Below, in pieces: positions 1,435 to 56,269 of a stretch of DNA of 64,000 nt. The stretch lies in the IMG/VR virus record IMGVR_UViG_3300047160_007939, positions 55,515-119,514 of that record. One strand, given 5' to 3'. The DNA is from a virus. How positions within the stretch are numbered: the first letter of the stretch is position 1; each line of letters opens with the position of its first letter. A model generated the notes under the pieces. It was not told the DNA's origin. It was given only the letters and a program-made list of their open reading frames with translations, and ran no database searches. The position numbers and the translations under genes are program-made.

Positions 1435-1844
1435 CGGTTCTCTCGCGCGAAACGGCTCACTCCTACTCGTCGGTTCTCTTGACGATTGCGGCTCCGCTCC
1501 TACGGCTCGGTTCACTCCCAATGGACGGCTCGCTCCCAATGGACGGCTCGCTCCCAATGGACGGCTCTCTCCAGTACCTCGGCTCGCTCACGCGGCCCGG
1601 TTCTCTCTCTCCGCAGACGGCTCGCTCTCGATCTTCGGTTCTCTAGTACGGGTCGGCTCGCTGCGCTCATTCGGTTCTCACGCGCCATTCGGCTCCGCTA
1701 GGCTCTCTCGGTTCTCTCACCCCCACTGGCTCGCGCATAAGGTGCGGTTCTCTCCACCGACACCGGCTTGCTCACGACGTTCGGTTCCCTCCACTTCAGC
1801 GGCTCGCTTCTTCCACGCGGTTCACTCTTTAGCAACGGCTCACA
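1435..1844 (-). repeat. TIGR-like dual-repeat guide array 1 (23 repeats)
   Basis: + strand repeats CGGTTCTCT/CGGCTCGCT start at 1435,1453,1471,1489,1508,1526,1544,1562,1580,1598,1618,1636,1654,1672,1690,1709,1727,1745,1764,1782,1800,1818,1836, with ~9-nt variable spacers (18-nt period, 36-nt unit). Confidence 0.9.
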
Positions 1845-4800
1845 GGATGACACCCCCACGGCCACGGAGCTTGCCGATCTTACCGAGTGTATCACCCACT
1901 ACACTATACTCCGGTCGCGGGTCGTTCTCGTGATCCTTCCCCGTCATCTCCCTGCCGGCGAGGAACATCTGGTGATCGGCACGGTCGGTCCCCAGGTAGC
2001 TGATGTCCCCCACGTTGGCGTAGTAGGTCGCCGAGAGCTGCCACGCGATCATCTCGGCATCGCAGAGGTCTTTGGCTCCCTTTCCCCCATAGGCTGATGT
2101 AGCAGGGTGGTCGATCTTCCGGTTGTTGATGAGCTGCACCTCGCGGAGCTGGTTCCTGGCCCGCTCGTGCTGGGGGTAGCCCGGCTTTGCGGGGAGCAGC
2201 CAGAGCAGGTTGTTGTTCAGCAGCGTCTTACCGTTCCGGTACATCCCGAGCTGCTCCGGATTGGACATGTCTTTGGCATCGCAGGGGATGCCCCACGATC
2301 GTACTTCCTGGATGATGCTCTCCGCCTGCCAGCGGTCGAACTTCATACCACCGACACTGGCCCCGCCTGCTTGAACGACATCCACGAGCTGGCGGAGCAC
2401 ATCTCGCACGTTGCCGAAGTCCACGGCCAACCGGTTCCGTTTGTCGGGCTTCCACTCCAGGAGTAGATCCTCAACAACGACCGCACGTCGCTGCTCTTCA
2501 ATGATGTCGTTGCCGAGGAGGTCTTTCGCGTAGACGGGCGTTCCGTCGTCTTCGAGGCGTAGAACCTTCGGGGCGGCGATCTTCTGGCCCGTCTCTTCAG
2601 CCAGCCCCCAGAACTGGTCCTCATTCGCATTCGGAACTCTCCCGCAGTGGTCACAGCGCCACATCGACGGCTCCCACGGCTTCTTCCTGAAGAGCGGCTG
2701 CTTCTTCGGGTCACTGCTTCGCGGGATCTTCCTGGGCCGGTAATGCTTCGCGTAGCGGCGCTGCCGGATCAGCCAGCACGCCGGGCAGCACTTCCCACCC
2801 TCTTCGCTGGGGACGATGTGCGAGATACAAAGGGCGAAGCTGTCCTGCTCCAGCCCCGCGTCCCCACCCACGAAGTAGATGATGCCCGGCCTGATACGCC
2901 AGTCCGAGAGAAGGAGCGCCACGTAGCGGTGCGTCTGCTGGTCCGAGGTGAGGTGCTCGGTAACCGTGTTCTCCACCTGCGCCATCGGCTCGATCATCGC
3001 CCGCCTGCCGGCTGTCGCCGCTTCCTCGATCTTCTCCGGCTGGGAGATGAACGCGCCCTCGGCTGCCGGCGGGTTCGTCTCGTAGACTGCTTCGTAGAGG
3101 TCCGGGTCGTCGCGCTTCACCTGCGCCATCACCGGATCGGCTGCGTGCCACTCGCCGAGATAGTAGACCTTCTGCCAGTCGCGCCAGGGAATGACGATGC
3201 GCGTCGGAGCACGGTCGCCCCACCACTCGGGCGTGGCCCCGCCGAGGTTCTCACACTGCCGCAAGCCTCCCAGGATGAAGCCGTTCAGGGCGCGCGGCCA
3301 GGAAATGACGAAGCCCCACTGGAACGCGCCGAAGCGGTTACTGGTACGGAGCGTGTTGAAGCACGCCGTTGCCGCATCGTGGCCTTCGGCATCGCGGAGC
3401 GCATCCGCTTCATCCAGCACCCAGCCGAGGGTGTTCTTGCCTTCCGCGCTCTCGTTCTTCGAGTTCAGCGAGTGGACGCGCACGCAGGGAACCCGGTAGT
3501 CGTAGCCGGGCATCAGCTTCCAGAACTGCGTGACGTTGGCCTGGATGTCGCCTCGCGGCCCACGGTCGATCAAACCATCGAAGCAGGGCTTGCCGATGTG
3601 CCGAACGAAGCGGTCGTAGAAGTTGGACTTCGCGGCCCGAGCGTCCTGGGCCATGTTGATGAAGTCGAAGTAGTCGCCGTTGGCGTGCCGGAAGTGGACC
3701 CACGGATTGACCATCTGCTGGATCACCCACGCCGCATAAGCGTAGATCCAGGATACGAGGGTGTCTTTGCCCGAGTTGGCGTGTAACGTGCCCCCGGCAT
3801 CGAAGTAACAGTGTGTCCCACCCACGGTGAGGCTGTAGAAGTCCGCTACCCTGGTTGGCTCGATGGCGGTTATCTTGCTATACTTGGTGTATGCCAGTCC
3901 CACTAGACCACGAACTTCGCGCCCGTATCGTCGCCCTCTATGCCGAGGGGAAAAGCTCCCCCGAGATAGGCCGCATCGTAGGCAAGCACGCAGAGACGGT
4001 GCGCTATCACCTCCGAGGAGCCGGCGTGCGCGTCCGCACGAAGTCGGAAGCGAAGCTTCTGCTCGGACCCCGCCCACTGCCAACCCCCGTTGAAGTGATC
4101 GTCCAGGCTTACGAAGAGGGCTGGCCGCTAACCGCGCTATCCGCCGCGTTCGGCATCGCCGAAGAGACACTACGCCGACATCTCCATCGAGCCGAACTAA
4201 AGATGCGAGCGCGGGGCCATGTTCCGGGCCGCTACGCGCCGCAGATCGAAGAGGCAGGCGACTACGTGTCTGTGACGCGCCGCGATCACCCTCTTGCGGA
4301 CGCAAATGGACAGGTGATGGCACATCGGCTGGTAATGGAAGCGCACCTGGGGCGCTTCCTGACGGCTGAAGAGGTCGTCCACCACGAGAACGGCATCCGA
4401 GACGACAACCGGATCGAGAACTTACGCCTCTTCCCCAGCGACCGAGAACACGCTCTTCATCACTGGCAAGAGTGGAAGACGCGACAACTATCTCGTCCCC
4501 CACTTCCAGATCCACCAGCTTCTGCCAGCCAGCCGGCGAAAGAAAGCGATGCTCTCCCGTCACCTCGCTCTCCCGGCCATCCGCCAGCGTAACGCGATAG
4601 AGCTGGGCCGTGCCCTTCCGATAAACGGGTGACGCCTGCCGGTAAACGACGCGCTCCCCATCCCACGACCGCACCAGAAGCGGCGTGCCCAACTGCGCCC
4701 ACTCCCCCATCGTGCGCGTAATTCCCGTGACCGCCGTGCTATAATCAGTCAGAAGACTTGTCTTTGATGTGCAACCTTTGCCCCAGCACAGCCACGCCAC

Positions 4801-5103
4801 GTTGACGTGCCTCGGCCTGACGTACCAATCCGAGGCGTGCAGGCCGATGGACTGCTCTAGCGCCCACTCTTGCCGGGGGGTAAGCGGCGGATCGCCGAGG
4901 TACTGCGGGGAGGTGACGAACTCCGGCAAGCTGGGAATGTGCATCCCCACCGGCCACGGCCACTGCCGGAATGCCTTTCTCAGCATCTGCCGGCCAGCCG
5001 GCAGCGATGCCTCGCGGATGACGCTTGAGAGCGCGCCGCGCCGGATCGCCTCTTCTTTCATCTGCCGGCGCAGGTCTTCGAGCTGCGCTTCCGAGACGGG
5101 CAT
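1840..5103 (-). CDS. terL: terminase large subunit, interrupted by an intein
   Basis: Walker A GKG|SGKDT split by the intein, Walker B WVLDEAD, C-terminal RNase H-like nuclease motifs (FVGGDAG, KFDRWQ, KDLCDA). Confidence 0.85.
3876..3884 (+). promoter_or_regulatory. extended -10 promoter (TGcTATACT) for a leaderless antisense HNH mRNA
   Basis: TG-n-TATACT at 3876-3884, ATG at 3891, no Shine-Dalgarno; the same TGcTATACT occurs in the promoter at 31528-31536. Confidence 0.6.
3891..4592 (+). CDS. HNH homing endonuclease with two N-terminal HTH domains, antisense inside the intein
   Basis: HTH-like [19 protein letters not shown] and [19 protein letters not shown]; HNH motif [35 protein letters not shown]. 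Confidence 0.85.
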
Positions 5104-5260: not shown

Positions 5261-6700
5261 TCACGACGCTCCCACCGGCCCGTTGCGGTATCCCGCGCTG
5301 ATGTCAGAGAGCATCGCCCTGATCGTCTCGGTGTCGTCCGCGAACCGCTGGCGCTGTCTTTCGGCTTCGGCTTCCAGCTCTCCGATGCGCGCCTTCAGCC
5401 GGTCGTTCTCCGCCGCTATCTCTTTGGACGCCTCGTTGACCGCCTCAAGCGCGCCCCAGAGACGCACGCGCGGGTCCATCCCACCGATGAGCAGCAGCTC
5501 TCCGTGGCCGTTCCCTTCGTCCAACACGACGACGGACGTGTTGGCTTCCTCATCGTCGTGCCACTCCTCGGCTCGCTCTTCCTCCGGCTCTGTCTCATCC
5601 CAACCTGTGTTGGCAGGCGCGAAGACATCGCTCACGTCTACCGCTGCCAGTTCTTCCTCGGTCGGCGGCTCGAACTGGCGCTCGCTGTCAACGGTTCTCT
5701 CGATAGTAGCGGCTTGCTCGTGGATGTCGGTTCTCTCATCGTGGTCGGCTCGCTCGTCGGGGTCGGTTCTCTCCGGTCGGACGGCTCGCTCTTGCGGCTC
5801 GGTTCTCTCCACTGCACCGGCTCGCTCATCTGATACGGTTCCCTCGTCTACGACGGCTCCCAGAGCCTGCTGTGCCAGTTGGGTGGACAGGTCAGGGAGC
5901 GGGGCAAGCCCACACATCACCAGCGGATCGACGTTGAGTGCCGCCGACACCTGCTTCAACCGCTTCTGGCCGCAGCCGGTGTAGCGGCCATTCTCCCAAC
6001 AGTCGAGGCTGGCTTTGTTGATGCCGCTGATGTCGGCCAACCCCCAACGGGTCAGGCCGGCTCGCTCTCGCAGCTCGCGGAGCACGTCGCCGTCAACGTG
6101 CTCCAGGTCCTTCGGGGGTCCACGGTGGGCTGCCGGCTTGCTGGCCGGCTCGGGCAACACGGCGGCTGCGCCGTTCGGCTGGGGAGGCGCGGCATCCACC
6201 TCCTGAAGATACTCCACGTTGGTCTTCAGCACGCTCGCCAGCTTCGCCCACCGGTCGGGCATCGGGGTATACAGCCCCTTCTCCCAACAGCGGATGACTT
6301 CCGGCGAGACGCTCATCCGGCTCGCCACCTCACGCCGCTCCATCCCGGCATCCTTCCTCGCCTGGATGATCCGGTCAGGGTTCAGCGGCGGCACAGGCGA
6401 AGGGTCTTCCGTCGCACCCGTGCAGTAGTCCACGGACACGTCCAGGAGCTTGGCGACCTTCACCAGCATCCCGGTACGCATACTCCGCTCGTGCGTCTCC
6501 CATCGCTCAACCTGGGTCGCCATCCCGCTACTGTGGCCCAGCCTGCCGGCAAGCTGGGCGCGGGACCATCCCTTCTTCTGCCGGGCGTTGGTCATCCGCT
6601 CCGGCAGCGTTCGCAGTGTCGTCAGCAGCTCGGCGCGCGTGCCCGCCTGGGAAGGCGTGGGCGCGGGCCGGCCTGCGGCCTGGCCTGCGGCCTGGGTCAT
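5261..6700 (-). CDS. multi-domain XRE-family HTH regulator (three HTH domains, repeat linker, coiled coil)
   Basis: Three Cro/C1-type segments (ARQKKGWSRAQLA..WETHER, ARKDAGMERREVA..WEKG, LRERAGLTRWGLA..WENG); RBS AAAGGAG. Confidence 0.8.
   Translation of the reverse strand: MTQAAGQAAGRPAPTPSQAGTRAELLTTLRTLPERMTNARQKKGWSRAQLAGRLGHSSGMATQVERWETHERSMRTGMLVKVAKLLDVSVDYCTGATEDPSPVPPLNPDRIIQARKDAGMERREVASRMSVSPEVIRCWEKGLYTPMPDRWAKLASVLKTNVEYLQEVDAAPPQPNGAAAVLPEPASKPAAHRGPPKDLEHVDGDVLRELRERAGLTRWGLADISGINKASLDCWENGRYTGCGQKRLKQVSAALNVDPLVMCGLAPLPDLSTQLAQQALGAVVDEGTVSDERAGAVERTEPQERAVRPERTDPDERADHDERTDIHEQAATIERTVDSERQFEPPTEEELAAVDVSDVFAPANTGWDETEPEEERAEEWHDDEEANTSVVVLDEGNGHGELLLIGGMDPRVRLWGALEAVNEASKEIAAENDRLKARIGELEAEAERQRQRFADDTETIRAMLSDISAGYRNGPVGAS
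5692..5862 (-). repeat. TIGR-like array 2 (10 repeats), in frame inside the HTH regulator gene
   Basis: Repeats at 5692,5710,5728,5746,5764,5782,5800,5818,5836,5854 with exact 18-nt spacing and strict A/B alternation. Confidence 0.88.
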
Positions 6701-6763
6701 CGGGAAAGTCTCCTTTCTGTTCCCGAGTGGCGGGGCGCTAGTGCCCCTGGCACAATTATAACG

Positions 6764-7018
6764 TCAACGAGCCTGCGTTACAACGCTATCATTGTGCCTT
6801 TTGGCTCTCTGCCGCTCAACAGACGGCAGAAGAACACCGGACTTCCGGCAGCGCCGGAAGTAAGCCTCACGGCACGGATGCGAGCAGTACAGCCCACGCC
6901 CAACAGTAGAGAACTGCCTGCCACACTCCAGACAGATCCGGTTCTTCAGCCTTCTCCTGGCTGCCAGCTCGCGGCCCTGCTCGGGCGTGCGGACAATGTG
7001 CGGGTTCGACTTTCTCAT
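6764..7018 (-). CDS. small zinc-finger protein
   Basis: CLECGRQF..YCSHPCR motif. Confidence 0.55.
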   Translation of the reverse strand: MRKSNPHIVRTPEQGRELAARRRLKNRICLECGRQFSTVGRGLYCSHPCREAYFRRCRKSGVLLPSVERQRAKRHNDSVVTQAR

Positions 7019-7053
7019 AACGCTATCATTGTCACTTGCGACACTGCCGGCTG

Positions 7054-7542
7054 TCAAGCAGCCTGCCGTCCACCACGCTTCTTCTCGAAGATCCGCGCCC
7101 ACCGCTCGTCCTTCGCGCCCTCAATACAGGCTTGCCGGTCTTTGCAGTACTTCACGTTGTAGCTGGCACAGCCCACCGGCAAGCCCATCGTGTGACTGAT
7201 GTCGTGCGCGTGAACGCCGATCCGACTGTCGGGCCGCTCCTCTTTGCACACGTCGCACACCCAGGTTACGTTCGCCCACCAGTCTACGTGCCCCGTCACC
7301 TCTGCCTCCGGCTTCTTCTCTCGTCTACCCTGGTAGCGCGTGTAGATGCACGGCTTCACGTAGGGCGGCAGCGCCGGCTTCGTCTTCTCCAGCTCGCCAC
7401 GAAGCACCCGCCGCATCCGACTGCAAAAGGCACAGTCGCAATCCCACGCCGTTTCCCAATACCCCAGCCGCGCACATCGAAGCGTCTTGAGCGCCTCCTG
7501 GAAGTGAAACTCCAGCGTATCCGCTTCCGGCTCTCTTCTCAC
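7054..7542 (-). CDS. hypothetical Cys-rich protein
   Basis: CDCAFC and CDVC motifs; overlaps the upstream stop. Confidence 0.5.
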   Translation of the reverse strand: MRREPEADTLEFHFQEALKTLRCARLGYWETAWDCDCAFCSRMRRVLRGELEKTKPALPPYVKPCIYTRYQGRREKKPEAEVTGHVDWWANVTWVCDVCKEERPDSRIGVHAHDISHTMGLPVGCASYNVKYCKDRQACIEGAKDERWARIFEKKRGGRQAA

Positions 7543-8162: not shown

Positions 8163-8934
8163 CCCCGTCGTTCTCCTTTCCTTCGTCGTCCGTCTCCACT
8201 ACGGCCTGCGCTTCGATGACCTCGGGTGGGCCATTCCTCGCGGCAAGCCGCTTCTCTTCCAGCTCGACTTCCCCGAGGAACTGCTTCAGGAAGCCGTCAA
8301 TCGCCCTGTCCAGCAGCTCTTCCCCGATCACCTCTGCCGGCGCGGTGTCCGGGTTCAGCGTACCGATGCTTGGTCCCGCCGCCAGCCCTGCCACGGCTCC
8401 CGTCTGTACCAGCACCGTCTGCTGCATCGGCATCGCTGCCGGCTGGCCGGCTCCGACCTTCGGCGGGACCACCGGCCAGCCTACCAGCGGTGCGATGATC
8501 GTGGTGAACTCCTTCAACATCGCTATCCCACGCTCAAGATCCGAGAGCGTCAGCTTCGCGTTCTCGTCTCCCCACTCCCGCCGGAACAATCCGAAGAGCC
8601 TCTCCTGCACGTCGCGGGCCATCACCACGCTGTCCGCGACCAGCAGCTCCCGCTCCACCGCAGCTTTTCTGCCCCGCTCTTCCGTCTCCTTCACGTCGGC
8701 ATCGACGGCCTTCTGCTGCATCCAGGCATCGTAAGCCGCCGCTCTCGCCGACCAGTCGTTGTGGCTCTGCCACTCGTAGAGCGAGCTTTTCGCGTTCTTG
8801 CTCCACTTTTCCGCCACTTTTGCTATGCTTCGCCTCGGTCCTAACTCCAGGTAACGCCGGAAGGCTTCGTAGGCTCTCTGGCTCTCGTGGCTTTGTTTCT
8901 CCCACGCCGCTGGGATGTCGGATGCTTCGCTCAT
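8152..8934 (-). CDS. terminase small subunit-like HTH protein
   Basis: N-terminal WEKQSHESQRAYEAFRRYLELGPRRSIAKVA..W..RAAAYD pattern typical of phage TerS-like proteins; upstream of terL. Confidence 0.6.
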   Translation of the reverse strand: MSEASDIPAAWEKQSHESQRAYEAFRRYLELGPRRSIAKVAEKWSKNAKSSLYEWQSHNDWSARAAAYDAWMQQKAVDADVKETEERGRKAAVERELLVADSVVMARDVQERLFGLFRREWGDENAKLTLSDLERGIAMLKEFTTIIAPLVGWPVVPPKVGAGQPAAMPMQQTVLVQTGAVAGLAAGPSIGTLNPDTAPAEVIGEELLDRAIDGFLKQFLGEVELEEKRLAARNGPPEVIEAQAVVETDDEGKENDGDEG

Positions 8935-8940
8935 AGGGTT

Positions 8941-9149
8941 CGGTTCCCTCGTACTTCCCGGCTTCGCTCGTCCGCTACGGTTCTCTAGCCCGCTATCGGC
9001 TCACTGCTCTGGCCCGGTTCTCTCGCGCTTCACGGCTCGCTCTTATTCTTCGGTTCTCGCAGCAACTTCGGCTCGCTCCCACGTTTCGGTTCTCTCGCGG
9101 AAGGTGGCTCGCTCCCGCTGCCCGGTTCTCTCTTCAGCGCCGGCTTCCT
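8941..9149 (-). repeat. TIGR-like array 3 (12 repeats)
   Basis: Repeats at 8941,8959,8978,8997,9015,9033,9051,9069,9087,9105,9123,9141; intergenic. Confidence 0.9.
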
Positions 9150-9492
9150 ATCGCCTGTTAAGTAAGCCCGATACCAGCACCCGCGCTGTCCACTCCTCTC
9201 CCATCACGAAGGAAAGCGCCTTCTCGAAGAGCGCGAGGTGCTGGCCTTCATCCACGATGGCAAAGAGGTGCGCGCTCTCCTCGTCAGGAAAGCGCAGGTA
9301 GAGACGCTTGTCCTTTACCCGCTCGGGTTTCACGTCGTACTTCGTCAGGATGTTGACCGCCGCCTGCCCACCCAGCCGCCGCAGCACTTCCAGCACGCGC
9401 CGGCCACTCGCCTGGATGCGCTGGATGTCTTCCGCGTCCCCCACCGGCTGATCCTCAACCGGCGTGAGAGTGATGCCGACCAGCCGGCTCAT
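9148..9492 (-). CDS. hypothetical protein
   Basis: ORF in operon; stop codon abuts array 3. Confidence 0.55.
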   Translation of the reverse strand: MSRLVGITLTPVEDQPVGDAEDIQRIQASGRRVLEVLRRLGGQAAVNILTKYDVKPERVKDKRLYLRFPDEESAHLFAIVDEGQHLALFEKALSFVMGEEWTARVLVSGLLNRR

Positions 9493-9862
9493 CTGCCGCG
9501 CTACCCGCCGGCTCCGGCCTACCTGCCGTCTGTCTACTCGTATCAGTGCCGTGTTCTCCTTTCAGCCGCGCCACTTCTTCCCGCAGTGCGGCAATCTCGT
9601 CCCCGATGGCTGCCACCTTCACTGCCTCTTTGTGCGACCTTCGGAGCGGTCCCAGGATACGGCGCAGCGCGCCCGTGAACTGCTCCGAAGTCCAGGGCTT
9701 GCCCGCTTTGGCGTGCCGCTCCGCCATCGTAATCATCGGCCAGAGCATCGCGTCGGTCCACTCCAGGGCTTCCTGGAGCCGCTGCCGCTCGGCTTCGCTG
9801 GCTTCCAGGCCCGCTCGAAGCCCGCTGATCGTAAGCCGCGAGGCGTCGATCACCCGCGTCAC
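9455..9862 (-). CDS. hypothetical coiled-coil protein
   Basis: GTG start overlapping the MTase stop; helical composition. Confidence 0.45.
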   Translation of the reverse strand: MTRVIDASRLTISGLRAGLEASEAERQRLQEALEWTDAMLWPMITMAERHAKAGKPWTSEQFTGALRRILGPLRRSHKEAVKVAAIGDEIAALREEVARLKGEHGTDTSRQTAGRPEPAGSAADEPAGRHHSHAG

Positions 9863-10605
9863 CGGCGCAGTTCCCCCACCACGAGGTACGAGTGGTTCTT
9901 CCTCGCCGTCTTCTGGAAGTCGTAGCGCATCGCCGGAACCGTCTCTTGCACCAGCACCAGGATGTCCACAATCCTGAAGCCGAAGAGTTCCAGGAGCTGG
10001 ATCACCTCGCAGTGGGTCAACCGCTGCCGGTTGCTCTCTATCTCGTCCTGACACTTGACCAGTACCTTTCCGCCAATCACCAGGATGCGCGCCGCCGAAA
10101 GTAACCCCGCCCCGTAGAGGCGAATGATACTTTCGTGGCTCTCGTTCTCGTTCAGGTAGCATTTATTGATCGACTGCTTGACCGTCTGCCCGCCGTGCAT
10201 ATAAGGCGGATCGAAGAGCACGGCATCGAAGTAGCGGCTCTCGCAGCAGTCCAGCCAGCGAAAATCCGCTTCTACTACATCGTAATCGTCTGCTTTAACA
10301 GGATGAAGGTCGAACTTCTCCAGCAGGTAGTCCCGCTCGTCCAGCTCCTTCCACCACACCCCGCGACCGTAGGTGATGTCCGCGACCTTCGTACCCTTTG
10401 CGACATACAGCTCGAAGGCGTCCGCAATCAGTCTCGCGTTCCCACCCACCCTCGCGGTAAGTACCGGGCCGGCCTGCCTGCCATTCCTTCCGGCTGGCAG
10501 GTCAGGCTGGACCGGCTCTGCTTCCTCTCCCCGGTTCTCTACACCCCTAACGGCTTGCTCTGCCACAGCGGTTCTCTCGTCGCCAACGGCTCGCTGCCGG
10601 CACAC
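9859..10605 (-). CDS. DNA amino-methyltransferase (DPPY motif)
   Basis: SAM-binding ADITYGRGVWW and catalytic VLFDPPY; start uncertain and possibly inside array 4. Confidence 0.75.
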   Translation of the reverse strand: MCRQRAVGDERTAVAEQAVRGVENRGEEAEPVQPDLPAGRNGRQAGPVLTARVGGNARLIADAFELYVAKGTKVADITYGRGVWWKELDERDYLLEKFDLHPVKADDYDVVEADFRWLDCCESRYFDAVLFDPPYMHGGQTVKQSINKCYLNENESHESIIRLYGAGLLSAARILVIGGKVLVKCQDEIESNRQRLTHCEVIQLLELFGFRIVDILVLVQETVPAMRYDFQKTARKNHSYLVVGELRR

Positions 10606-10667
10606 GGTTCTCTCTGATGGTTCGGCTCGCTCACGGACATCGGTTCTCTCGATCTACGCGGCTTGGT
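10513..10667 (-). repeat. TIGR-like array 4 (9 repeats), directly downstream of the Tas gene
   Basis: Repeats at 10513,10532,10551,10569,10587,10605,10623,10641,10659. Confidence 0.88.
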
Positions 10668-11820
10668 CACCCCGTCGCCGGTGCTCCCTCGCTTCCCGCA
10701 GGCCGGGGAAGAAGTGCTCGTTCGGCGGCGGGATGTAGTCGATGTGCCCCAGGATCCCGATCACGTAAGGAGCTGGCGTCGGCGTCTTGAACCTCTCCCA
10801 GAACATCACCTCATGAAGATGCGAGAGGAAGAGCTTCACCGCGTACCGGCGTGCCCGAAGATCGATCCGGCCATCCGGCAGCCGGCCCTCTTCGTAAACG
10901 CGCTTCGTCGCCGTGTCCCGGCTCCAGTCCTTCTCGGCCAGCGTGCGCTGGGCAGTCTCGGCAAAGCGGCCTGCCGCGTTCCTCTCCATCTCCAGCTCCT
11001 TCCGCTGCTCGTAGACTTTCCCGTAGAAGCAGTCGGGCCAGTTGTGGAACTTCACGAAGCAGTCGCCTGCCTTCCAGCAGAGGGTCTTGAAGCCGTCGTG
11101 GTAAGGCCGGCGGGCAAGAGCTGCCGCCACGTTCTCCCTGGAGAGCTTCCGCTGCTTCCCGTCCTTATCCGTCTCGGCAAAGCGCAGCACGGTCGCCGGG
11201 TTCAGGCCGGCGTGCGGGCACGCCCGGCGTACCACCTCTTTCCAGTAGGCATCGCCGTCTTGCCCCCGCTTCTTTCCGTGCCCCTCGCGCTCCATCTCGC
11301 CGATCACGCGCGCCAGCACCACCGCGCCGTCCTTCTTGCCCAGCCAACGCTGGGTCGGGTCCAGGCCGGCGTGCCGCCAGATGTCGCCCACCGTGCTCGC
11401 TCGCTCGATGTCGATGTAGGCCATCAGCCCCGCGCTGATCACCGGTCCCACTCCTCGTTGGCTCTTCAGCCACCGGCCCACCGGCTGCCCATCCGTCCAG
11501 ATGTCGAGCATCGTCTTCACCTGATGCTCCTGGCGCATATCCTGGCCGGCCAGCCACTTGATGAGCGTGCAGGGTTCGCCCGATGCCTCCAGCGCACGTA
11601 CCTGGTTGCAGGCTGTCGCGCGCAGGTGCTGCATCGCGTAGTAATAGTCCACGAGGTAGCGCACCTCGCGGGGCTGAAGCGCGATACCCGCTTCCTTCAG
11701 GTCCCTCTTCAGCTTGTCGAGGGGAAGCAGCATAGCCACCCACTCGGGATCGAGGCTTGCCCGCACCGCCGGGTCATCCAGATCCGGCGGCTCCTCAAAC
11801 GGTCTTCGCTCGTCACTCAC
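10654..11820 (-). CDS. TasA-like Nop-domain (IS110/Nop-related) RNA-guided protein with no evident nuclease domain
   Basis: Coiled coil (YLVDYYYAMQHLRATACNQVRAL), IS110/Nop-type core WLKSQRGVGPVISAGLMAYIDIERASTVGDIWRHAGLDP, FYGKVYEQRK and RARRYAVKLFLSHL; no RuvC or HNH motifs; flanked by dual-repeat arrays; RBS AAAGGAG. Confidence 0.8.
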   Translation of the reverse strand: MSDERRPFEEPPDLDDPAVRASLDPEWVAMLLPLDKLKRDLKEAGIALQPREVRYLVDYYYAMQHLRATACNQVRALEASGEPCTLIKWLAGQDMRQEHQVKTMLDIWTDGQPVGRWLKSQRGVGPVISAGLMAYIDIERASTVGDIWRHAGLDPTQRWLGKKDGAVVLARVIGEMEREGHGKKRGQDGDAYWKEVVRRACPHAGLNPATVLRFAETDKDGKQRKLSRENVAAALARRPYHDGFKTLCWKAGDCFVKFHNWPDCFYGKVYEQRKELEMERNAAGRFAETAQRTLAEKDWSRDTATKRVYEEGRLPDGRIDLRARRYAVKLFLSHLHEVMFWERFKTPTPAPYVIGILGHIDYIPPPNEHFFPGLREAREHRRRGDQAA

Positions 11821-11871: not shown

Positions 11872-12044
11872 CAGTTCTCTATTACACCACGGCTCGCTAC
11901 TCGTGGACGGTTCTCTCGTCGCCTGCGGCTCGCTCGAAGGCATCGGTTCTCTCGTAATCGTCGGCTCCGCTCCGATTAAGCGGTTCTCTCCATCCGGGCG
12001 GCTCGCTCGTAGCGTCTCGGTTCACTCCACAACAACGGCTTTCG
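11872..12044 (-). repeat. TIGR-like array 5 (10 repeats), directly upstream of the Tas gene
   Basis: Repeats at 11872,11890,11908,11926,11944,11962,11981,11999,12018,12036. Confidence 0.88.
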
Positions 12045-12930
12045 CGGCTTCCAGGTAGTCTTCGACAATCTCGAAGCCCACGAAGTCCAATCCCAGGCTG
12101 ACGGCAGCAGCTCCGGCGTGCCCGATGCCGAGGAACGGGTCGAGTACGGTCTTCACCCGCTCCCTGCCGTGGAGCAGGATGCACTTCCTCGCCAGCTCGG
12201 TCGGGAAGGTGGCCGGGTGCGGACGCTGCCCGGCCCGGCTCTTGATCGTCTTGTAGGGTACGAACCAGACGTTCCCACGGCAGCGCCGGTCCACCCCACC
12301 GGGCTTTGCCCAGCGGGTCACGTTGCTCTTGTCCTGGTAGGGCACGCCCACGGCCAGCCGGTCCAGCGGCACGTCCCCCCGCTTCGTGAAGTGGAAGACG
12401 TACTCGTGGCAGTCGGAGAGGAAGCGCGGGCTGCTGATCGGCTTCAGGTGACCTATGGCTATATCACCTGTGATCCCAGGATAATCGCCCACGTCCTTCT
12501 TCTCGATGGCGATGCTCTTCACCCAATGGATGACATTCTGGAGTTCCAGGTGCTTCCCCACCACCATCGACACCAGGAACGGGACCCACGGATCGGTCGG
12601 CTTGCTTCCCAGCACCAGAAAGAGCGAACCATTCGGCGCAAGCACCTCATTCGTTGCCCTCGCCCACCGGTCCATCCACTCCAGGTACTCGCCTCGCGGC
12701 CCACGGTCATCGTAGCCGCTGTACTCCACGCCGATGTTATAGGGCGGCGAGGTCACCACCACGTCCACGCTGCCGGGGTCCAGCCGGCGGCGCATCCCTT
12801 CCACGCAATCCTCGTGGAAGAGACGCACCCACGACCGGCCTACCCGCGCTTCATACGCGGGCCGCTCTAGGGTCACGGTTCTCTGCTGTATCACGGCTAG
12901 CTCGGTTGACACGGTTCTCTCTGATAACAC
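12022..12930 (-). CDS. DNA methyltransferase, N4-C/N6-A beta class
   Basis: VVVTSPPYN catalytic motif, HPATFP, VLDPFLGIG SAM-binding motif. Confidence 0.88.
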   Translation of the reverse strand: MLSERTVSTELAVIQQRTVTLERPAYEARVGRSWVRLFHEDCVEGMRRRLDPGSVDVVVTSPPYNIGVEYSGYDDRGPRGEYLEWMDRWARATNEVLAPNGSLFLVLGSKPTDPWVPFLVSMVVGKHLELQNVIHWVKSIAIEKKDVGDYPGITGDIAIGHLKPISSPRFLSDCHEYVFHFTKRGDVPLDRLAVGVPYQDKSNVTRWAKPGGVDRRCRGNVWFVPYKTIKSRAGQRPHPATFPTELARKCILLHGRERVKTVLDPFLGIGHAGAAAVSLGLDFVGFEIVEDYLEAAKAVVVE

Positions 12931-13139
12931 GGCTCGCTTCTCTGTCTCGGTTCACTCGCTATGGCCGGCTTCGCTCGCGCGTGACGGTTCGCTTCGCTGA
13001 CGTGGCTCGCTCCCACTTAACGGTTCCCTCTGGAACAACGGCTCGCTCGTACCGAACGGTTCTCTCGTGGTTTGCGGCTCGCTCATGTACGGCGGTTCTC
13101 TATCTGATTGCGGCTCCGCTCCTACTGCACGGTTCTCTC
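12858..13139 (-). repeat. TIGR-like array 6 (16 repeats)
   Basis: Repeats at 12858,12876,12894,12912,12930,12948,12966,12985,13003,13021,13039,13057,13075,13093,13111,13130. Confidence 0.9.
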
Positions 13140-41800: not shown

Positions 41801-44800
41801 GCGCGTCAGCCATCGTCAGCTACGACCAGGAAGCGGCTGCCGTGGACCGAGGCGAGCTGGAGCATCTGATCGACGCGCTCCACGTTGGCTTCTGGCAACA
41901 CAGGAAAGGAGATGAGTGGTGAGCGAGAAGGAGAAGACCGAAGGAGCCGGCCAGCCGGCTGGCGACGACGAGGATCCGAGGATCCAGGTGCTCTACGCTT
42001 TCGTAGGCATCAGGGATGGAGCCGAGGGGTTGATGACCGCCTGCACACCCAGCGGCGGGCACAAGCAGATGATCACGGCCAACCGTGGTGACCTCATTAC
42101 GATGGGGCTGCTCGCGCAGGCCATCGCCCAGACGGGCGAGCTGAAGGTCGAGCTGCGGGAGTACCGGCTGGAGAACGTCTTCCACGAGTTCGAGCCTGAC
42201 CCGGACGCGGAGATGGGCGTAGAGGTCGAAGTCATCAACCGGCAGGAAGCCGAGGCGCTCCTTCAGGCTGCGATGGCAGGGGGTGAGAACTTTGGCACAT
42301 CCTGACAAGCAGCCTGGGAAGGAGAACTACCGTGGCTACCACATCACGAACGTTTGGTTGTTCGTGAGCGTGGACACGGACGGGGACGAGGGGATCTGTG
42401 CCTTCAGAGGCACGGATGGGTGGATGCCGATGGTCGCCGCTGACGAGCGCCGGCTCCACCAGCTCATCCCCATCGCCCAGGAGCTAGCGAACGCCCGAGG
42501 CGTGAAGATCGAGGTGCGCGCCTTCGGGGGACCGGAGACGCACCTCGTCATCACACCGAGAAAGGAGAACGACGGTGGGACAGACAGTTGACTACACGGT
42601 ACACGACCTGGGGACGATGTGGCAGATCGTGGCCCACACCACCCAGGCCAGGGAGTGGGTGCAGCAGTTCGTCGGCGAGATACCCGACTACATGGGCAAC
42701 CACGAAGCCTTCTACGGCGACTGGCGACCGATGAGGGAGATTGCCAGGGGGATGCGCGATGCCGGGCTTGCCGGAGCCGGCCTGCCCTGGCACACCGACG
42801 AGAACGCGAGGTGGCCGGGTGAGAGCTGAAACTCGCATCATCTGGGATGCCAGCGAGATAGCTGGCTGGCAGTGGCAGATCATCGTGGAGATGTATCCGA
42901 AGGTCAAGACCTGCGGCAGCATCCGCCGGAAGTATCTGGCTGCCTTCACCTACGAAGAGCGAGAGGCGATCCGTGAGCTTTACGAGCAGTTCCGCCGGTG
43001 GGCGAACGTGACGGGTGCTCCCAGCGAGCACGAGGCGAAGCCCAACGAGGTAGCATTGATCCAGCGTGCCGTGGCTTTCTTCGGCACGGTGTAGAGAGGA
43101 GAGGTGATGAGCGAAGAGCTGACGACGGCGGAGTTGCGGGAGATGGCGTCAAGCGACTACTTCACCTTTGGTACGTCCGCGCCCTACGCGATGGGCGACG
43201 TGGTGATCGAGAAGGTGGGGTTCGGCTCCATCCCGATGTGCTGGGTGCGGGTGAACTGCCGTGAGCAGGACATCCGCGCCCTGGTTCCCGTGGTGCGGCA
43301 GAAGGTCTTCCGCTTCCTCGCGGCTGCCGGCGTACCGGATACGGTGCTCCAGTTCAGCCCGCGAGTGGGGGAGATACGCAGACGAGAACGGTTCGTAGAT
43401 GAGAACCCTTCCAGCCCGAGCCGGGGCAAGAACAAGTTTGGCGCTTGCTCCCGGTTCTCGTTCGAGATTGTCCCCAGCGGCCTGGGATACTTCGAGTTCG
43501 GCTGGCGAGGATCGACGTGGAGCCGTGGCCGCGTAAGAAAGGAGACGACCGATGAGTGAGAGCACGAGCACGCTCAACCCCACGCGCTTCTGGGCGGGGG
43601 AGCGAGCGGAGCAGCGGAGGATCCAGAAGTACGAGAACCGCCGGCAGCTCCTCTTCTTGTTCCAGGAGGTGGTGGGCCACCTCCTGGGCTGGGAGATTGA
43701 CGGCGACCAGCCGCACGAGGAGCAGGGGATGTTCGGCCTGCGCCATCTGAAGACGGGCGCGCAGGTCTGGTTCGAGCTGACCTCGGGAAGCATCCCCGAC
43801 GAACGACCGCTGGGGAAGGAGCACGGCGACCGGATCGCCCTGCGGGTGCGCTGGCCGAAGAAGCCCTCGAACCTGCGAGAACAGGCGAAGGAAGTCGTCT
43901 GGGTCGAGAACGGCAACCCCGGCGCGGTGCGGACGCAGATCAACATCGGCATCGACCGGACGCCGAAGCAGATCGCCGCGTCCTTCGAGAACCGCTTCGA
44001 GGTGGAAGCCATCGAGCTGTGGCAGAACGCCTTCGCAGAGGTCCAAAAGCAGAACGCTGCCGAGGCGACGAGGGATGCTTCCTTTCTCGACCTCGCCCAG
44101 CTCACGAAGGGCGAGCCGAACGAGCACGAGACGAAGAGCGGCCAGCTCTTCGTGCGGCGGGGCTTTGCCGGCTCGCCGGATGTTGCCGTTCACGGCGGCA
44201 ACGCCATCTACATCAACTTCAGGGGGCTGCGCTACGACGAAGCCGTGGCGATCCTGAAGGCTGCGAGAAAGGAGGGTGACGAGTGAACCGGATGCGCTAC
44301 CTGACGAACTGCGTCGAGGTGGGGATGTCCGAGCTGGAGCATCTCCAGGCGATGCAGGACGAAGGCCGCGAGGTGACGCTTGCCACGGTGCGGCGTCACT
44401 GCGACCCGGCAGACTTCCGTGCCTTCGAGCGCCGGATGGGGTACGACACCGGCGGCGAGCGCGGTGGCCTGCGGCTGAAGGACGACTGGCACGTTGGCTA
44501 CTTCAAGAGCACCTGGAAGGGCCGACCGTGCTACTACATCGTCCACTCCGCCATCGAACACATCTGGGTCCCGGCTTAACCGCCGGGACCCAGCCAGAAA
44601 GGAGAACACGAATGACGGTGGTGATGAATATGAGCACCGGTGAGCTGACCGGCTACACCTGCTCACCAGAGTTGGCTGTGCTCTGCGCTCACGCGCAGGG
44701 GTTTGGTGATTACAACACCTGGGCCTACGAGGAGACGTACCCAGGCGAGGTCCAAACGAGCAGAAGCGGTGACACGGTATGGGCCGGTCACTACTGCGCG

Positions 44801-44886
44801 CTCACCCGCCAGGGCAGGGAGAAGTACCCCATCGCCCACCGGCGGGAGCTGCGCGAGGTGCTGGACATCCGAGAGGTGGTGGAACG

Positions 44887-53427: not shown

Positions 53428-56269
53428 TTAACCCTCCTCCAATCTTGCCGGCGTGCTGCTTCAGGATGCCGTCCCAGGTGACCGGCTCCTCGCTTCGCTC
53501 TGGCAACGCAGGCTGGTAGTTCACGTTGGCGACGAACGGGAACGCGAAGTTGAACGGCGTGATGTACTCCGCTCTGATGTTAGACCGAAAGCGCATCGAT
53601 CCTCCGAGGCAGGTCCAGACGAGTGAGTGGGCCATCACATAGAGTTGGTTCTGCCACACCCCGCTCTTGCTCTCCATCAGTTGGATCGACATCATCGGGA
53701 AGATGCCGGGTTGCATAAACGCCTCGAAGCCTGCCGAGTAGCCAGGGATCCGCATCATCCGGTAGTAGTTCAGGATGGCGCTCATCGCAAAGGGCAGGTT
53801 GGCGAACTTGCTGTCCATCTGCACGAAGGGCTTCCGGTAGCCGACATAGTTGAAGACGCCGGGCGAGTAGATGCTGTCGCTGTCGTTCGCCCAGGTCACG
53901 ATGGGGTTCCAGCCGCCGGCTCCGCCCACCGAGTTCACCCCGATCACCCGGAAGACGTTTCGGATGTCGTGGCCGTCCCAGGCAACCTCGGTGTTCCACA
54001 CCTCGGAGAGATTGGCTCCCTCGGGTCCGGTGGGAGCCTCGGTGTAGATGGCCTGCACCACGCCGGCCACCGGCGGGATCCACGGCTCGAAGTGGAAGTA
54101 GCCGTAGTTGTCGAAGTACATCAGAGCCTGGGCCGGCTGGCGGATGTAGTTGAGCAGGTCCATCACACTCGATACCCGGTCTACCGGGGTCCACGGCTTG
54201 CTGCCGAAGCCCATCGGCAGGAAGTAGCCCTGCTCCCCGGTCATCGGGTTATAGTTCGGGTCCGCTGGCGACACGCCGTCAGGATCGATCATCGCGTTCC
54301 AGTCGTCGCCGAGGGTTGTCTCCTGGCCGCTCATCGGGTCCACAGCCGGCACGAGGAAGCGGAAGGCCAGTTGGCTGGCGTGGAACCCGGCTACCTGGGC
54401 CAGATACGCGGCAGCGGCGTAGATGTTCCACCCATCCATATCCGGCGGGCTGAACGAGTAGCCGTCTTCGAGCTGGCCCATCTGGTCTTCGCAGTAGACG
54501 CGCAGGTTGGCCTGGGATGCCGAAGACCGCTCCCACTGGTAGCGGCGCGCTTTACCCACGAACCGTTGCGTCAGGCCCACGGGTGGGTCCGCGTACCCGA
54601 CGCTGAAGGAGACGGCACTCTCCCCGAAGGCTCCCGCCCACTCGCCGTGCTGGTTGTCCACCACGAAGGAGAAGGTGTGCCGGAGCGTCAGGTTCTGCTT
54701 GTCGAACTGCCAGTCTTCCTGCACCTCTTTCGGAATGAGCGCCCGAGCATTCGGGCCGAGGAGCTGATACCACGTCCCAGGCGCACCGATCCCTACTCTC
54801 GTGCATACGGCTGTTAAGTCAGCGTAATAGTCATCCGCCCACTGGATGGGCTGGCCGCTGGCGTCCGCAGCCGGCACGTTATAGATAGCGAGGTCGTACT
54901 GCTGGTCCTGGGAGTAGGACGACGTGCCGGGGGAGATGCCGCAGATGATCTGCGAGCCGTAGGGGAAAGCCAGGGTCCAGGGGTCGTAGCTGCCACGGAT
55001 CACCGCGTCCGAGATGCCGTTCATCCGGTAGACCAGCACCCCGTTCGTCGGCTCGCCCATGTTGATGGGCGTGCTGCGCCGCCACGCGAAGGTCCCCCAC
55101 TTGCAGAGGTGCGCGGCAGCCGAGAGATAGGTGAAGTTGGAAACCTGGACGGAAATCTCGGTGATGCGCGGCTCCTCGGAGTAGGGGATGTCGTACTCGA
55201 TGAGCACCGGCGTCGTCATCCCGCCGATGGAGACGCGCATCGTGAAGTTCAGGTAGAGCACCGAGACGACCGTGTAGTAGCCGCCGTCATCGGTGGTGTC
55301 GCTGGCCGTCCACTTGTACTGGTCGCTCTCGTTCTGGCTGGGCTTGACGCCGGCCACCAGGGTCTTCCACGTCTCCCCCTGGTCCACCGAGTACTGGATC
55401 TTCGGCAGGTCCCCACTGGTGAGGAGAGCCGAGAACATCACTCCTTTGCTCGGGTCCATCGAGCTGCTCTGGCCCCGCTGTCCCCGGTACGGAGGCAGGT
55501 TCCAGTTGCAACGGCACTGGCTCGGTACGCCTCCGTCGATGCTGGCTGGATCCCAGCCGACAAAGAAGGTCACTCCCTGCGCCTGGGCATTCTCGGTCTG
55601 GTCGCCCTGACCGCCGGTCCCACCGCTCCCGCCGGTGGTGTCGCGGGGAGTTCCGGCCTGCCGGCTTTTCCGGCTCCGCCGCCGGTAGCGGCGCATCTGG
55701 GGCGTGCCCGGTCCCCCGAACCCGCCGCCACCGCTGCCGCTGCCGTCGCTGCTGCCGCCTGTTCCGCTGCCCTGTGAGAAGCCGGTGAGCGGCGCGTATA
55801 TCTGGGCGAAGTTAGTCTGGTCGTCTGCCGAGGGGGTCCAGCTTCCGTTCGGCTCGATGCTGATCATATCCCCGCCCGGCGGGTGCGAGCCGGGGTCTCC
55901 GATCACCGTCGCCTCGTCGCCGGCATTGTCCAGCCCCACATCGAAGTTGAGCGGGAGGTCGCCCGAGCTGGGATCATCGCCGCCGCTGTCGTAGAACCAC
56001 GTCAACAGCTCGGGCGTGTCTCCCATATCGTTGACGATGGACGTGCCCGAGCCGGAGCTGTCGTAAATCTGCTGGCCGTGCGGCACGAAGATCGGTGTCG
56101 GCATACAGCCGGTGGCGTAGCCATCGATCTTGAGCTGGTCGCCGTCATCGGTGTTGCCCACCCCGAAGCTCATCGCGTAGTCGGAGACGATGATGCTGGG
56201 CGTCTGCTGAAGCGGAAAGACCGCTCCCACGGCATCCACCAGCAGCTCTCCGATGGGTACGGCTTTCAC
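53387..56269 (-). CDS. large tail/baseplate hub-like protein
   Basis: About 960 aa, G/D/S/T-rich, downstream of the tape-measure-like gene; YFDNYGYFHF..IRNVFRVIG resembles tail hub proteins. Confidence 0.55.
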   Translation of the reverse strand: MKAVPIGELLVDAVGAVFPLQQTPSIIVSDYAMSFGVGNTDDGDQLKIDGYATGCMPTPIFVPHGQQIYDSSGSGTSIVNDMGDTPELLTWFYDSGGDDPSSGDLPLNFDVGLDNAGDEATVIGDPGSHPPGGDMISIEPNGSWTPSADDQTNFAQIYAPLTGFSQGSGTGGSSDGSGSGGGGFGGPGTPQMRRYRRRSRKSRQAGTPRDTTGGSGGTGGQGDQTENAQAQGVTFFVGWDPASIDGGVPSQCRCNWNLPPYRGQRGQSSSMDPSKGVMFSALLTSGDLPKIQYSVDQGETWKTLVAGVKPSQNESDQYKWTASDTTDDGGYYTVVSVLYLNFTMRVSIGGMTTPVLIEYDIPYSEEPRITEISVQVSNFTYLSAAAHLCKWGTFAWRRSTPINMGEPTNGVLVYRMNGISDAVIRGSYDPWTLAFPYGSQIICGISPGTSSYSQDQQYDLAIYNVPAADASGQPIQWADDYYADLTAVCTRVGIGAPGTWYQLLGPNARALIPKEVQEDWQFDKQNLTLRHTFSFVVDNQHGEWAGAFGESAVSFSVGYADPPVGLTQRFVGKARRYQWERSSASQANLRVYCEDQMGQLEDGYSFSPPDMDGWNIYAAAAYLAQVAGFHASQLAFRFLVPAVDPMSGQETTLGDDWNAMIDPDGVSPADPNYNPMTGEQGYFLPMGFGSKPWTPVDRVSSVMDLLNYIRQPAQALMYFDNYGYFHFEPWIPPVAGVVQAIYTEAPTGPEGANLSEVWNTEVAWDGHDIRNVFRVIGVNSVGGAGGWNPIVTWANDSDSIYSPGVFNYVGYRKPFVQMDSKFANLPFAMSAILNYYRMMRIPGYSAGFEAFMQPGIFPMMSIQLMESKSGVWQNQLYVMAHSLVWTCLGGSMRFRSNIRAEYITPFNFAFPFVANVNYQPALPERSEEPVTWDGILKQHAGKIGGGLSANPKHRPAAAAV

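Follow-up and report, generated by a model that had tools for sequence, protein, structure and literature searches.

TIGR-Tas systems are a newly described RNA-guided family. A dual-repeat TIGR array consists of two alternating repeats of 8 to 12 nucleotides (nt) that share covarying start and end motifs (box D and box C) and are separated by variable spacers of about 8 to 12 nt in units of about 36 nt, the SpTIGR array carrying 16 nt of spacer content per unit; such arrays lie beside a tas gene and on its strand (PMC12045711). The closest described system is the TIGR-TasH system of Salicola phage CGphi29 (Faure et al. 2025, PMC12045711; PMC13421893), for which tigRNAs of the array were detected by small-RNA sequencing (PMC12045711). 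Intragenic tigRNAs have also been reported, for example in Bifidobacterium longum TasA (Xu et al., bioRxiv 10.64898/2026.09.09.750476), where tigRNAs embedded in tasA were found to be expressed by small-RNA sequencing and were recovered from the ribonucleoprotein. Here we analyzed a stretch of 64,000 nt (the window; positions 55,515 to 119,514 of the 119,514-base virus record IMGVR_UViG_3300047160_007939) and describe an array of this kind located in frame inside a gene for an XRE-type regulator. Our preferred reading, to which we give a probability of about 55%, is that the linker (predicted with low confidence to be disordered) of a real regulator gene of a soil phage holds, in frame, a dual-repeat TIGR array of about four complete units, which would be transcribed within the mRNA of the gene and could be processed into guides.

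The locus resembles CGphi29 TIGR-TasH in having 36-nt units in which two 10-nt repeats alternate and are separated by 8-nt spacers, an array that is sense to tas, and a Nop-domain protein with a Y-x6-H pair. It differs in that the Tas protein is devoid of the HNH nuclease and carries an insertion of ~110 amino acids (aa), and in that eight clusters are distributed over ~24 kb instead of one array beside tas, with the array studied here lying inside a protein-coding gene. As in the intragenic tigRNAs of Xu et al., the array is in frame, leaves the open reading frame (ORF) unbroken and probably falls between structured parts, and those authors propose that guide maturation is coupled to the host message. 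However, the host gene in their report is tas and the arrays are mostly of the stem-loop type, whereas the hosts here are an XRE-type regulator and a primase and the arrays are dual-repeat. By analogy with TasA, described in the same preprint as an RNA-guided transcriptional repressor, the Nop-only Tas found here together with arrays would likely bind DNA without cutting it, although the repressors tested by Xu et al. use stem-loop guides and have no Y/H loop, whereas the present Tas goes with dual repeats and has kept the Y/H pair. Small mobile repeats located in frame in bacterial genes (PMC2759123) are likewise non-coding repeat DNA that adds peptide segments to ORFs, but they are MITE (miniature inverted-repeat transposable element)-like and have no guide-RNA role. 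In-frame arrays inside tas are known from the September 2026 preprint, and what seems new here is that the host genes are a regulator and a primase. In the TIGR-Tas literature, taken as main texts in the parts available and with the supplements and the TIGRSafari database outside its scope, our search returned no in-frame array in a gene other than tas.

The two features at the center of this analysis are the following.

5261 to 6700, minus strand: gene for a 479-aa XRE-type regulator with three helix-turn-helix (HTH) domains, a linker made of an array-coded and an acidic part, and a long C-terminal helix.
5692 to 5863, minus strand: in-frame dual-repeat TIGR array with 10 repeats, making up ~4 complete 36-nt units and one incomplete 3' unit; it encodes residues 280-337 with an ERA/ERT period of 6 aa.

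Read on the plus strand, nine 10-nt repeats start at 5692, 5710, 5728, 5746, 5764, 5782, 5800, 5818 and 5836 and therefore cover 5692-5845, with CGGTTCTCTC and CGGCTCGCTC in alternation; seven of the nine are exact, two have one mismatch, and the eight steps between them are all 18 nt. A tenth, degenerate repeat at 5854-5863 (3 mismatches allowed) keeps the same register and brings the count to 9/9 steps of 18 nt. The first-pass annotation of this DNA, which reported ten exactly spaced repeats inside the ORF, was therefore right about the spacing, with nine repeats good and one degenerate, and residues 286-337 read exactly as it had translated them. Read along the gene (minus) strand, the 10 positions are occupied in strict alternation by GAGCGAGCCG and GAGAGAACCG with a period of 36, and the 8-nt spacers are all unique. 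Tandem Repeats Finder (TRF) run on the window also reported period 36, at 5692-5773 and 5710-5827. The two end motifs (GAG...CCG, minus strand) are intact in 9 of the 10 repeats, which makes this the best-kept array of the genome. Over the whole window, the degenerate repeat pattern gave 124 matches against 45.05 expected (standard deviation 6.26, shuffle maximum 65), a number reached in none of 100 shuffles, and the pattern search of the genome gave 0 forward and 29 reverse matches, with 0 and 0 in the controls.

The array thus combines two alternating repeats, short variable spacers in 36-nt units and the shared end motifs GAG and CCG, and by the sequence-level definition of the family the segment 5692 to 5863 is a genuine dual-repeat TIGR array. 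By analogy with the UG...CCA motifs of the published system (PMC12045711), the GAG start and the CCG end would correspond to box D and box C. The first repeat, CTGGGAGCCG, has kept only its 3' half, and several arrays in the genome, this one included, open with a C-type repeat reduced in this way. Since such a 5'-shortened first repeat fits the published "5'-truncated edge repeat," GAGCGAGCCG (C-type) is the probable edge repeat and the A-rich GAGAGAACCG (T-type) the probable loop repeat. Within the array, the Arg codons are CGA or AGA in 8 of 8 cases; by comparison, 15 reference genes use these two codons for 83 of 646 Arg residues, and the remainder of the ORF uses them for 6 of 35. Because of these rare codons, and because identical repeats are read in another frame in the primase gene described below, the repeating entity is the DNA and not the peptide.

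The same repeats form eight array clusters over ~24 kb of the genome, all on one strand: besides the array in the regulator gene, there are five non-coding clusters in the window, and one more array and the primase array elsewhere in the genome. The clusters of the window and the tas gene are located as follows.

1435 to 1845, minus strand: TIGR array cluster downstream of terL, non-coding and built from the same repeats.
8923 to 9150, minus strand: non-coding TIGR array upstream of the small-terminase gene.
10532 to 10688, minus strand: TIGR array directly downstream of tas, the last two degenerate repeats overlapping the 3' end of tas.
10654 to 11820, minus strand: tas gene encoding 388 aa with a Nop domain, TasA-like, without HNH or RuvC; Tyr352 and His359 match the SpTasH processing pair.
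11872 to 12045, minus strand: TIGR array directly upstream of tas.
12858 to 13139, minus strand: TIGR array upstream of an N6/N4 DNA methylase gene.

The identity of Tas was supported by sequence and structure comparisons. A phmmer search of the PDB retrieved 9mty (a TIGR-TasR complex by its title) with an E value of 2.6e-10 and TasH chains at 5.1e-05. An AlphaFold2 model built from four sequences had a mean predicted local distance difference test (pLDDT) score of 76.2, and when it was compared with the PDB by Foldseek, the top ten matches were all TasH or TasR, with IS110-family recombinases lower in the list. Pfam gave only a weak Transposase_20 match, and phrog_4285 (a 277-position profile) matched residues 32-368. 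No HNH residues of SpTasH were aligned in Tas, in which only ~95 residues precede the Nop match, and since no HNH or RuvC part is recognizable, we classify the protein as TasA-like and nuclease-less. Tyr352 and His359 form a Y-x6-H pair with a spacing identical to that of Y289/H296 in SpTasH (taken from the CGphi29 record); MAFFT placed the Tas Tyr one column off, and moving a one-residue gap aligned it. In SpTasH, Y289 and H296 are the catalytic pair for autonomous pre-tigRNA cleavage (PMC13421893).

Relatives of Tas were found on four viral contigs at 46% (L009), 33%, 31% and 31% identity, the last two (L011 and L012) being near-duplicates. All four contigs carry dispersed arrays of GAGCGAGCCG plus GAGAGTGCCG or GAGAGTACCG that are co-oriented with tas. 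The CGphi29 array, which was missed by TRF and found by find_repeats, likewise shares the strand of tasH; its repeats, AAGCGAGCCA / AAGACAACCA with 8-nt spacers, are identical to the repeats here at 8/10 and 7/10 of the positions. As the arrays of CGphi29 and of the four Tas-relative loci are on the tas strand, the array in the regulator gene is on the sense strand of the mRNA. The exact pair GAGCGAGCCG-N8-GAGAGAACCG was present in 47 other viral contigs, and because many of them hold several separate arrays, dispersed arrays are, by this pattern, a trait of this TIGR lineage. A tblastn search of the phage ORFs of at least 120 codons against the four Tas-relative loci returned only Tas, array-derived matches and one unrelated gene.

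Several further observations concern tas and its surroundings. Compared with SpTasH and with its relatives from L010 and L011, Tas has ~110 additional residues (~157-270) inserted in the Nop region, and this insertion is present in the 46%-identical L009 protein. The last ~10 codons of tas (10654-10690) overlap two degenerate repeats of the downstream array, and because of this overlap the tail of the protein, ...EHRRRGDQAA, looks array-derived. Xu et al. describe this kind of overlap for tas; in the present case, it is the 3' end of tas that overlaps the downstream array. At L010:2086-2305 and L011:9572-9784, the stop-free tas frame runs upstream into the preceding array and reads ERA/ESA, and in L010 the first possible tas start codon lies within the array. 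DNA methyltransferase genes flank tas on both sides, at 9859-10605 and 12022-12930 (minus strand; phrog_24333, E 2.2e-32; PF01555, E 8e-38), with arrays in the gaps that separate them from tas, and for each methylase the longest ORF begins inside an array. PF02195, which would represent ParB, the partner of TasA, had no match in this genome.

We then evaluated whether the ORF that carries the array is a real gene. Its parts and its upstream signals are the following.

5924 to 6613, minus strand: coding region of the three HTH domains (residues ~30-97, 111-165 and 204-259).
5282 to 5473, minus strand: C-terminal helix, a probable coiled coil (residues 410-473, pLDDT 81-97), for which no homologue was found beyond a fragment of the protein itself.
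6710 to 6716, minus strand: ribosome-binding site AAAGGAG, as read from the sequence, 9 nt ahead of the ATG at 6700.
6749 to 6798, minus strand: sigma-70-like promoter TTGTAA-17-TATAAT (6783-6755) inside the inverted repeat GGCACAATTATAACGT / ACGCTATCATTGTGCC, the probable promoter and operator of the regulator gene.

Pfam PF01381 (HTH_3) matched three stretches of the product (E 2.6e-22), the last at residues ~204-259, and in PHROGs the protein matched phrog_8, "transcriptional regulator" (E 2e-32). A single-sequence AlphaFold2 model had a mean pLDDT of only 47.4, its sole confident part being the long helix at 410-473, and as it is poor overall we used it for this helix alone. Since the last HTH_3 match ends at ~259 and the confident helix starts at 410, the array is placed between the third HTH and the C-terminal helix; the position given in the first-pass annotation therefore stands, while the coiled coil that it named is only probable. 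The frame contains no stop codon between 6700 and 5264. In this frame, the G+C content at third codon positions (GC3) reaches 0.82-0.90 over the HTH domains, drops to 0.60-0.70 within the array and returns to 0.80-0.85 over the final 80 codons, compared to 0.75-0.88 in ten reference genes. A consensus scan, the only method applied for this purpose, showed no sigma-70-like site from the start codon up to the array. Gene calls on 14 contigs gave the identical 479-aa product, and contigs from other soil runs showed zero differences over 5711-6408. Given the coding GC3 in the same frame on both sides of the array, the promoter-like site, the inverted repeat and the ribosome-binding site, the ORF is, by these signals, one real gene.

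Homologues of the regulator were scarce. In a word-indexed search, the only match besides the query itself was a multi-HTH protein of 811 aa (27% identity, with 42% of the query covered); HMMER with residues 338-479 against 1.84 billion representatives retrieved only a 68-aa fragment of the regulator; and neither tblastn against 50,697 phage records nor the scan of viral contigs gave any match. The 90% cluster of the regulator has 3 members, which differ by the start site, a 4-aa deletion near the N terminus and a V297A change in a spacer, and none of them has an altered number of units. In the contigs of four soil DNA runs, we counted 15 substitutions and 4 indels over 12 kb, which correspond to one strain; one substitution was non-synonymous and fell in a spacer, and no gain or loss of a unit was seen in the array. 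In one of the runs, the 5711-6111 bin had zero depth, to which we attach no evidential value.

The 16-mer GGCRCAATNATAGCGT has seven copies in the genome at ≤2 mismatches (window 6749-6798 and 7019-7037; genome 4730, 14029, 39589 and 42620). Two copies constitute the inverted repeat that encloses the regulator promoter, and one overlaps the second hexamer of another promoter-like site upstream. The motif may be an operator or a phage promoter element.

A second array is embedded in the same manner. At genome positions 44729-44828, 10.7 kb before the window, six repeats are spanned by a long open frame for a primase-like protein of 351 aa that contains DUF7146 and Toprim and has a weak zinc-ribbon match under the Pfam cut-off; the array lies in the linker between the zinc ribbon and Toprim. 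Here the repeats are read one base later than in the regulator and give REP/SEP. The two closest relatives of this primase (68% and 65% identical) are missing ~25 residues exactly at the array; one of them is encoded on a metagenome contig with conserved synteny, where no 18-nt register of repeats is present in the linker DNA. In 18 homologues at greater distance, the linkers vary and the 6-aa period is absent. As the two closest relatives do not have the array-coded residues, the primase array is an insertion into a variable linker that already existed. In two of the three sense frames, no stop codon falls within the repeat and the peptides specified, ERA/ERT and SEP/REP, are hydrophilic; the frames used in the regulator and the primase are these two. 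The same kind of array is therefore found in frame in two unrelated genes of one phage, with an array-free state of the primase in close relatives, which shows that arrays can enter coding sequence as ready-made linker modules. Annotation pipelines that discard arrays inside ORFs, or that search only beside tas, will miss such cases.

In order to evaluate how unusual this arrangement is, we surveyed 47 other viral contigs with the exact repeat pair, 44 of which had arrays at the thresholds set, for a total of 86 arrays. Only 1 of the 86 lay in a stop-free frame reaching 50 codons on both sides, and this is a weak case (L057:10032-10113, the tail of a small membrane-like ORF with a 174-codon frame and flank GC3 of 0.65 and 0.57). 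In this phage, 2 of 8 arrays are embedded in frame between coding flanks. With a single weak example among 86, such embedding is rare elsewhere.

The first-pass annotation had also argued that the absence of indels and of in-frame stops points to selection on both RNA and protein, since the intergenic arrays all contain 19- or 20-nt steps. The latter statement is true for the five clusters of the window (one 37-nt step being 18+19), but the argument did not survive comparison with the other arrays. In the 44 contigs, 1,384 of 1,525 steps were exactly 18 nt, and 453 of 910 nine-step windows consisted of 18-nt steps throughout. As 10 of the 52 intergenic steps in this genome deviate from 18 nt, nine clean steps are expected by chance with a probability of roughly 0.15. 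Furthermore, among 181 windows of the same length from arrays of the clade, mostly intergenic, 60 had no stop codon in the ERA/ERT frame, while for the SEP/REP and the third frame the numbers were 32 and 1; this set excludes the two in-frame arrays and the near-duplicate L012 and keeps the L010 and L011 arrays located just upstream of tas. An open frame and a clean register are what any array needs in order to persist within a gene, and they do not testify to selection on the RNA. From the proposal of dual-coding DNA, what is retained is a TIGR-type guide array within a continuous, coding-like ORF; the selection argued from it is not.

The mechanism that we favor starts with the insertion or the local expansion of an array in a tolerant linker, which is the most likely origin, and we know of no mobility mechanism for TIGR arrays. 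The regulator's own promoter would transcribe the array within the mRNA, and as part of this mRNA the array would make the regulator transcript also a pre-tigRNA. The nuclease-less Tas, with the Tyr/His pair that in SpTasH cuts edge repeats, could free about four 36-nt guides by cutting within the C-type repeats, and every such cut would split the message, leaving the DNA-binding half on one side and the C-terminal helix on the other. Such cutting is mechanistically plausible, since a Tas with the Tyr/His pair is encoded 4.8 kb away on the same strand, and the production of guides from this array seems somewhat likelier than its absence, because its repeats are the best kept in the genome. One DNA stretch may then serve as both a protein linker and a source of guide RNAs. 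We regard the coupling to mRNA cutting as a probable by-product of location and not as a demonstrated regulatory circuit. The locus offers a test case for an mRNA that doubles as a guide precursor and for guide processing that regulates the host gene.

Several points weigh against this reading. The array is on the same strand as tas but 4.8 kb away rather than adjoining it, and at its 3' end there is only a displaced partial repeat match, without a proper edge repeat; a sequence scan found no terminator-like site after it. The array-coded linker has a pLDDT of 31-49 in the AlphaFold2 model, a low confidence that does not by itself demonstrate disorder. Since the regulator has no homologues to compare, an array-free ancestor cannot be shown for it, and the rarity of in-frame embedding elsewhere means that there is no general rule supporting function. 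None of the 24 runs listed for the stretch is on record as RNA. Finally, a recent insertion could by itself explain both the well-kept repeats and the unameliorated codons, so that a recent inert insertion would look identical to an active array.

This last point leads to an alternative that we consider unlikely, though far from negligible, namely, that the array or a piece of it landed in the linker as a dead passenger, is translated as spacer peptide only, is neither bound nor processed by Tas and will decay. The missing 3' edge repeat and terminator and the distance from tas agree with it, translation of the mRNA may compete with Tas binding, and neither the open frame nor the exact register needs selection. 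Against it stand both end motifs in 9/10 repeats and 7/9 good repeats exact, a state better than that of the arrays flanking tas, as well as Arg codons that are still rare in all 8 cases, although, as said, the integrity of the repeats and the codons could also reflect a recent arrival. The opposite possibility, that the DNA is dual coding under selection on both RNA and protein and that Tas cutting of the mRNA is an adaptive feedback switch, is about equally doubtful. With the build-up of Tas, full-length regulator would give way to guides and a shortened message that lacks a stop codon. All structural evidence cited for the preferred reading applies to this one too, which also gains from the presence of in-frame arrays in two independent genes of one phage, both in interdomain linkers, compared to one weak case in 86 elsewhere, from the regulator-gene array having the best-kept repeats of the genome, from the regulator having its own promoter and operator-like inverted repeat, and from the similar coupling that Xu et al. 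propose for arrays inside tas. However, non-coding arrays often have exact 18-nt steps and an open frame, none of the seven genome copies of the operator-like motif is near tas, none of the runs listed is on record as RNA, and 15 substitutions in 12 kb are too few for selection to be measured; the feedback loop has no direct support. A broader form of this idea, which we likewise consider unlikely, is that arrays colonised the linkers of both the regulator and the primase, that both messages are guide precursors and that Tas, by cutting at edge repeats, acts as a post-transcriptional switch. In the regulator, the switch would part the DNA-binding half from the C-terminal helix, and in the primase it would part the zinc finger from TOPRIM, while freeing guides; if this is true, guide production would be tied to the timing of phage gene expression.

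Two further explanations would do away with an array inside a gene altogether. It is very improbable that ORF 5261-6700 is not one translated gene but two genes, or a gene and non-coding DNA, brought together by chance or through misassembly. Homologues are missing for the C-terminal part, GC3 falls across the array and open frames across such arrays are common, all of which would fit, but the absence of a stop codon from 6700 to 5264, the coding GC pattern in the same frame on both sides, the 479-aa product on 14 contigs, a strain variant that keeps the frame and the agreement of contigs from other runs speak for a single gene. We give almost no credence to an ordinary protein tandem repeat, ER[TA]xxx, maintained by protein-level selection and only resembling a guide array. 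Such repeats are the usual false positives of array finders, and charged linkers of proteins often show a six-residue period, but this explanation is contradicted by five non-coding arrays made of the same 10-nt repeats, by the primase, where these repeats are read in another frame, by a codon choice fixed at rare codons and by the match to the CGphi29 array.

With respect to possible targets, the spacer pairs of the 52 definable units had no match in the phage's own genome at ≤1 mismatch. At 2 mismatches, there were 2 matches, compared to 8 to 14 in reversed or shuffled controls, and the low number of self-matches may reflect self-target avoidance or a composition effect. By our estimate, a 16-nt target has hundreds of chance matches in 596 billion bases. 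The problem of chance matches for 16-nt targets is also raised by Xu et al. (bioRxiv 10.64898/2026.09.09.750476).

In one soil run, three short contigs join different arrays (window 1444, 5791, 8632, 9066 and 10862), with side lengths of 21 to 24 nt. These are most likely assembly joins induced by the repeats or arrays of other phages, and recombination between arrays is possible.

Upstream of the regulator gene, a small Cys-rich, zinc-ribbon-like ORF at 6764-7102 (minus strand) lies directly 3' of a promoter-like TTGACA-18-GACAAT and contains a terminator-like hairpin (6850-6835). Because its ATG is ~9 nt past the second hexamer, its message may be leaderless. On the other side, the terL ORF (1,087 aa, 1840-5103, minus strand) has a weak intein-splicing match, below the Pfam cut-off, and an HTH-HTH-HNH gene (HNH_3, E 1e-12) is located on the opposite strand within the terL region, at 3855-4592 (plus strand).

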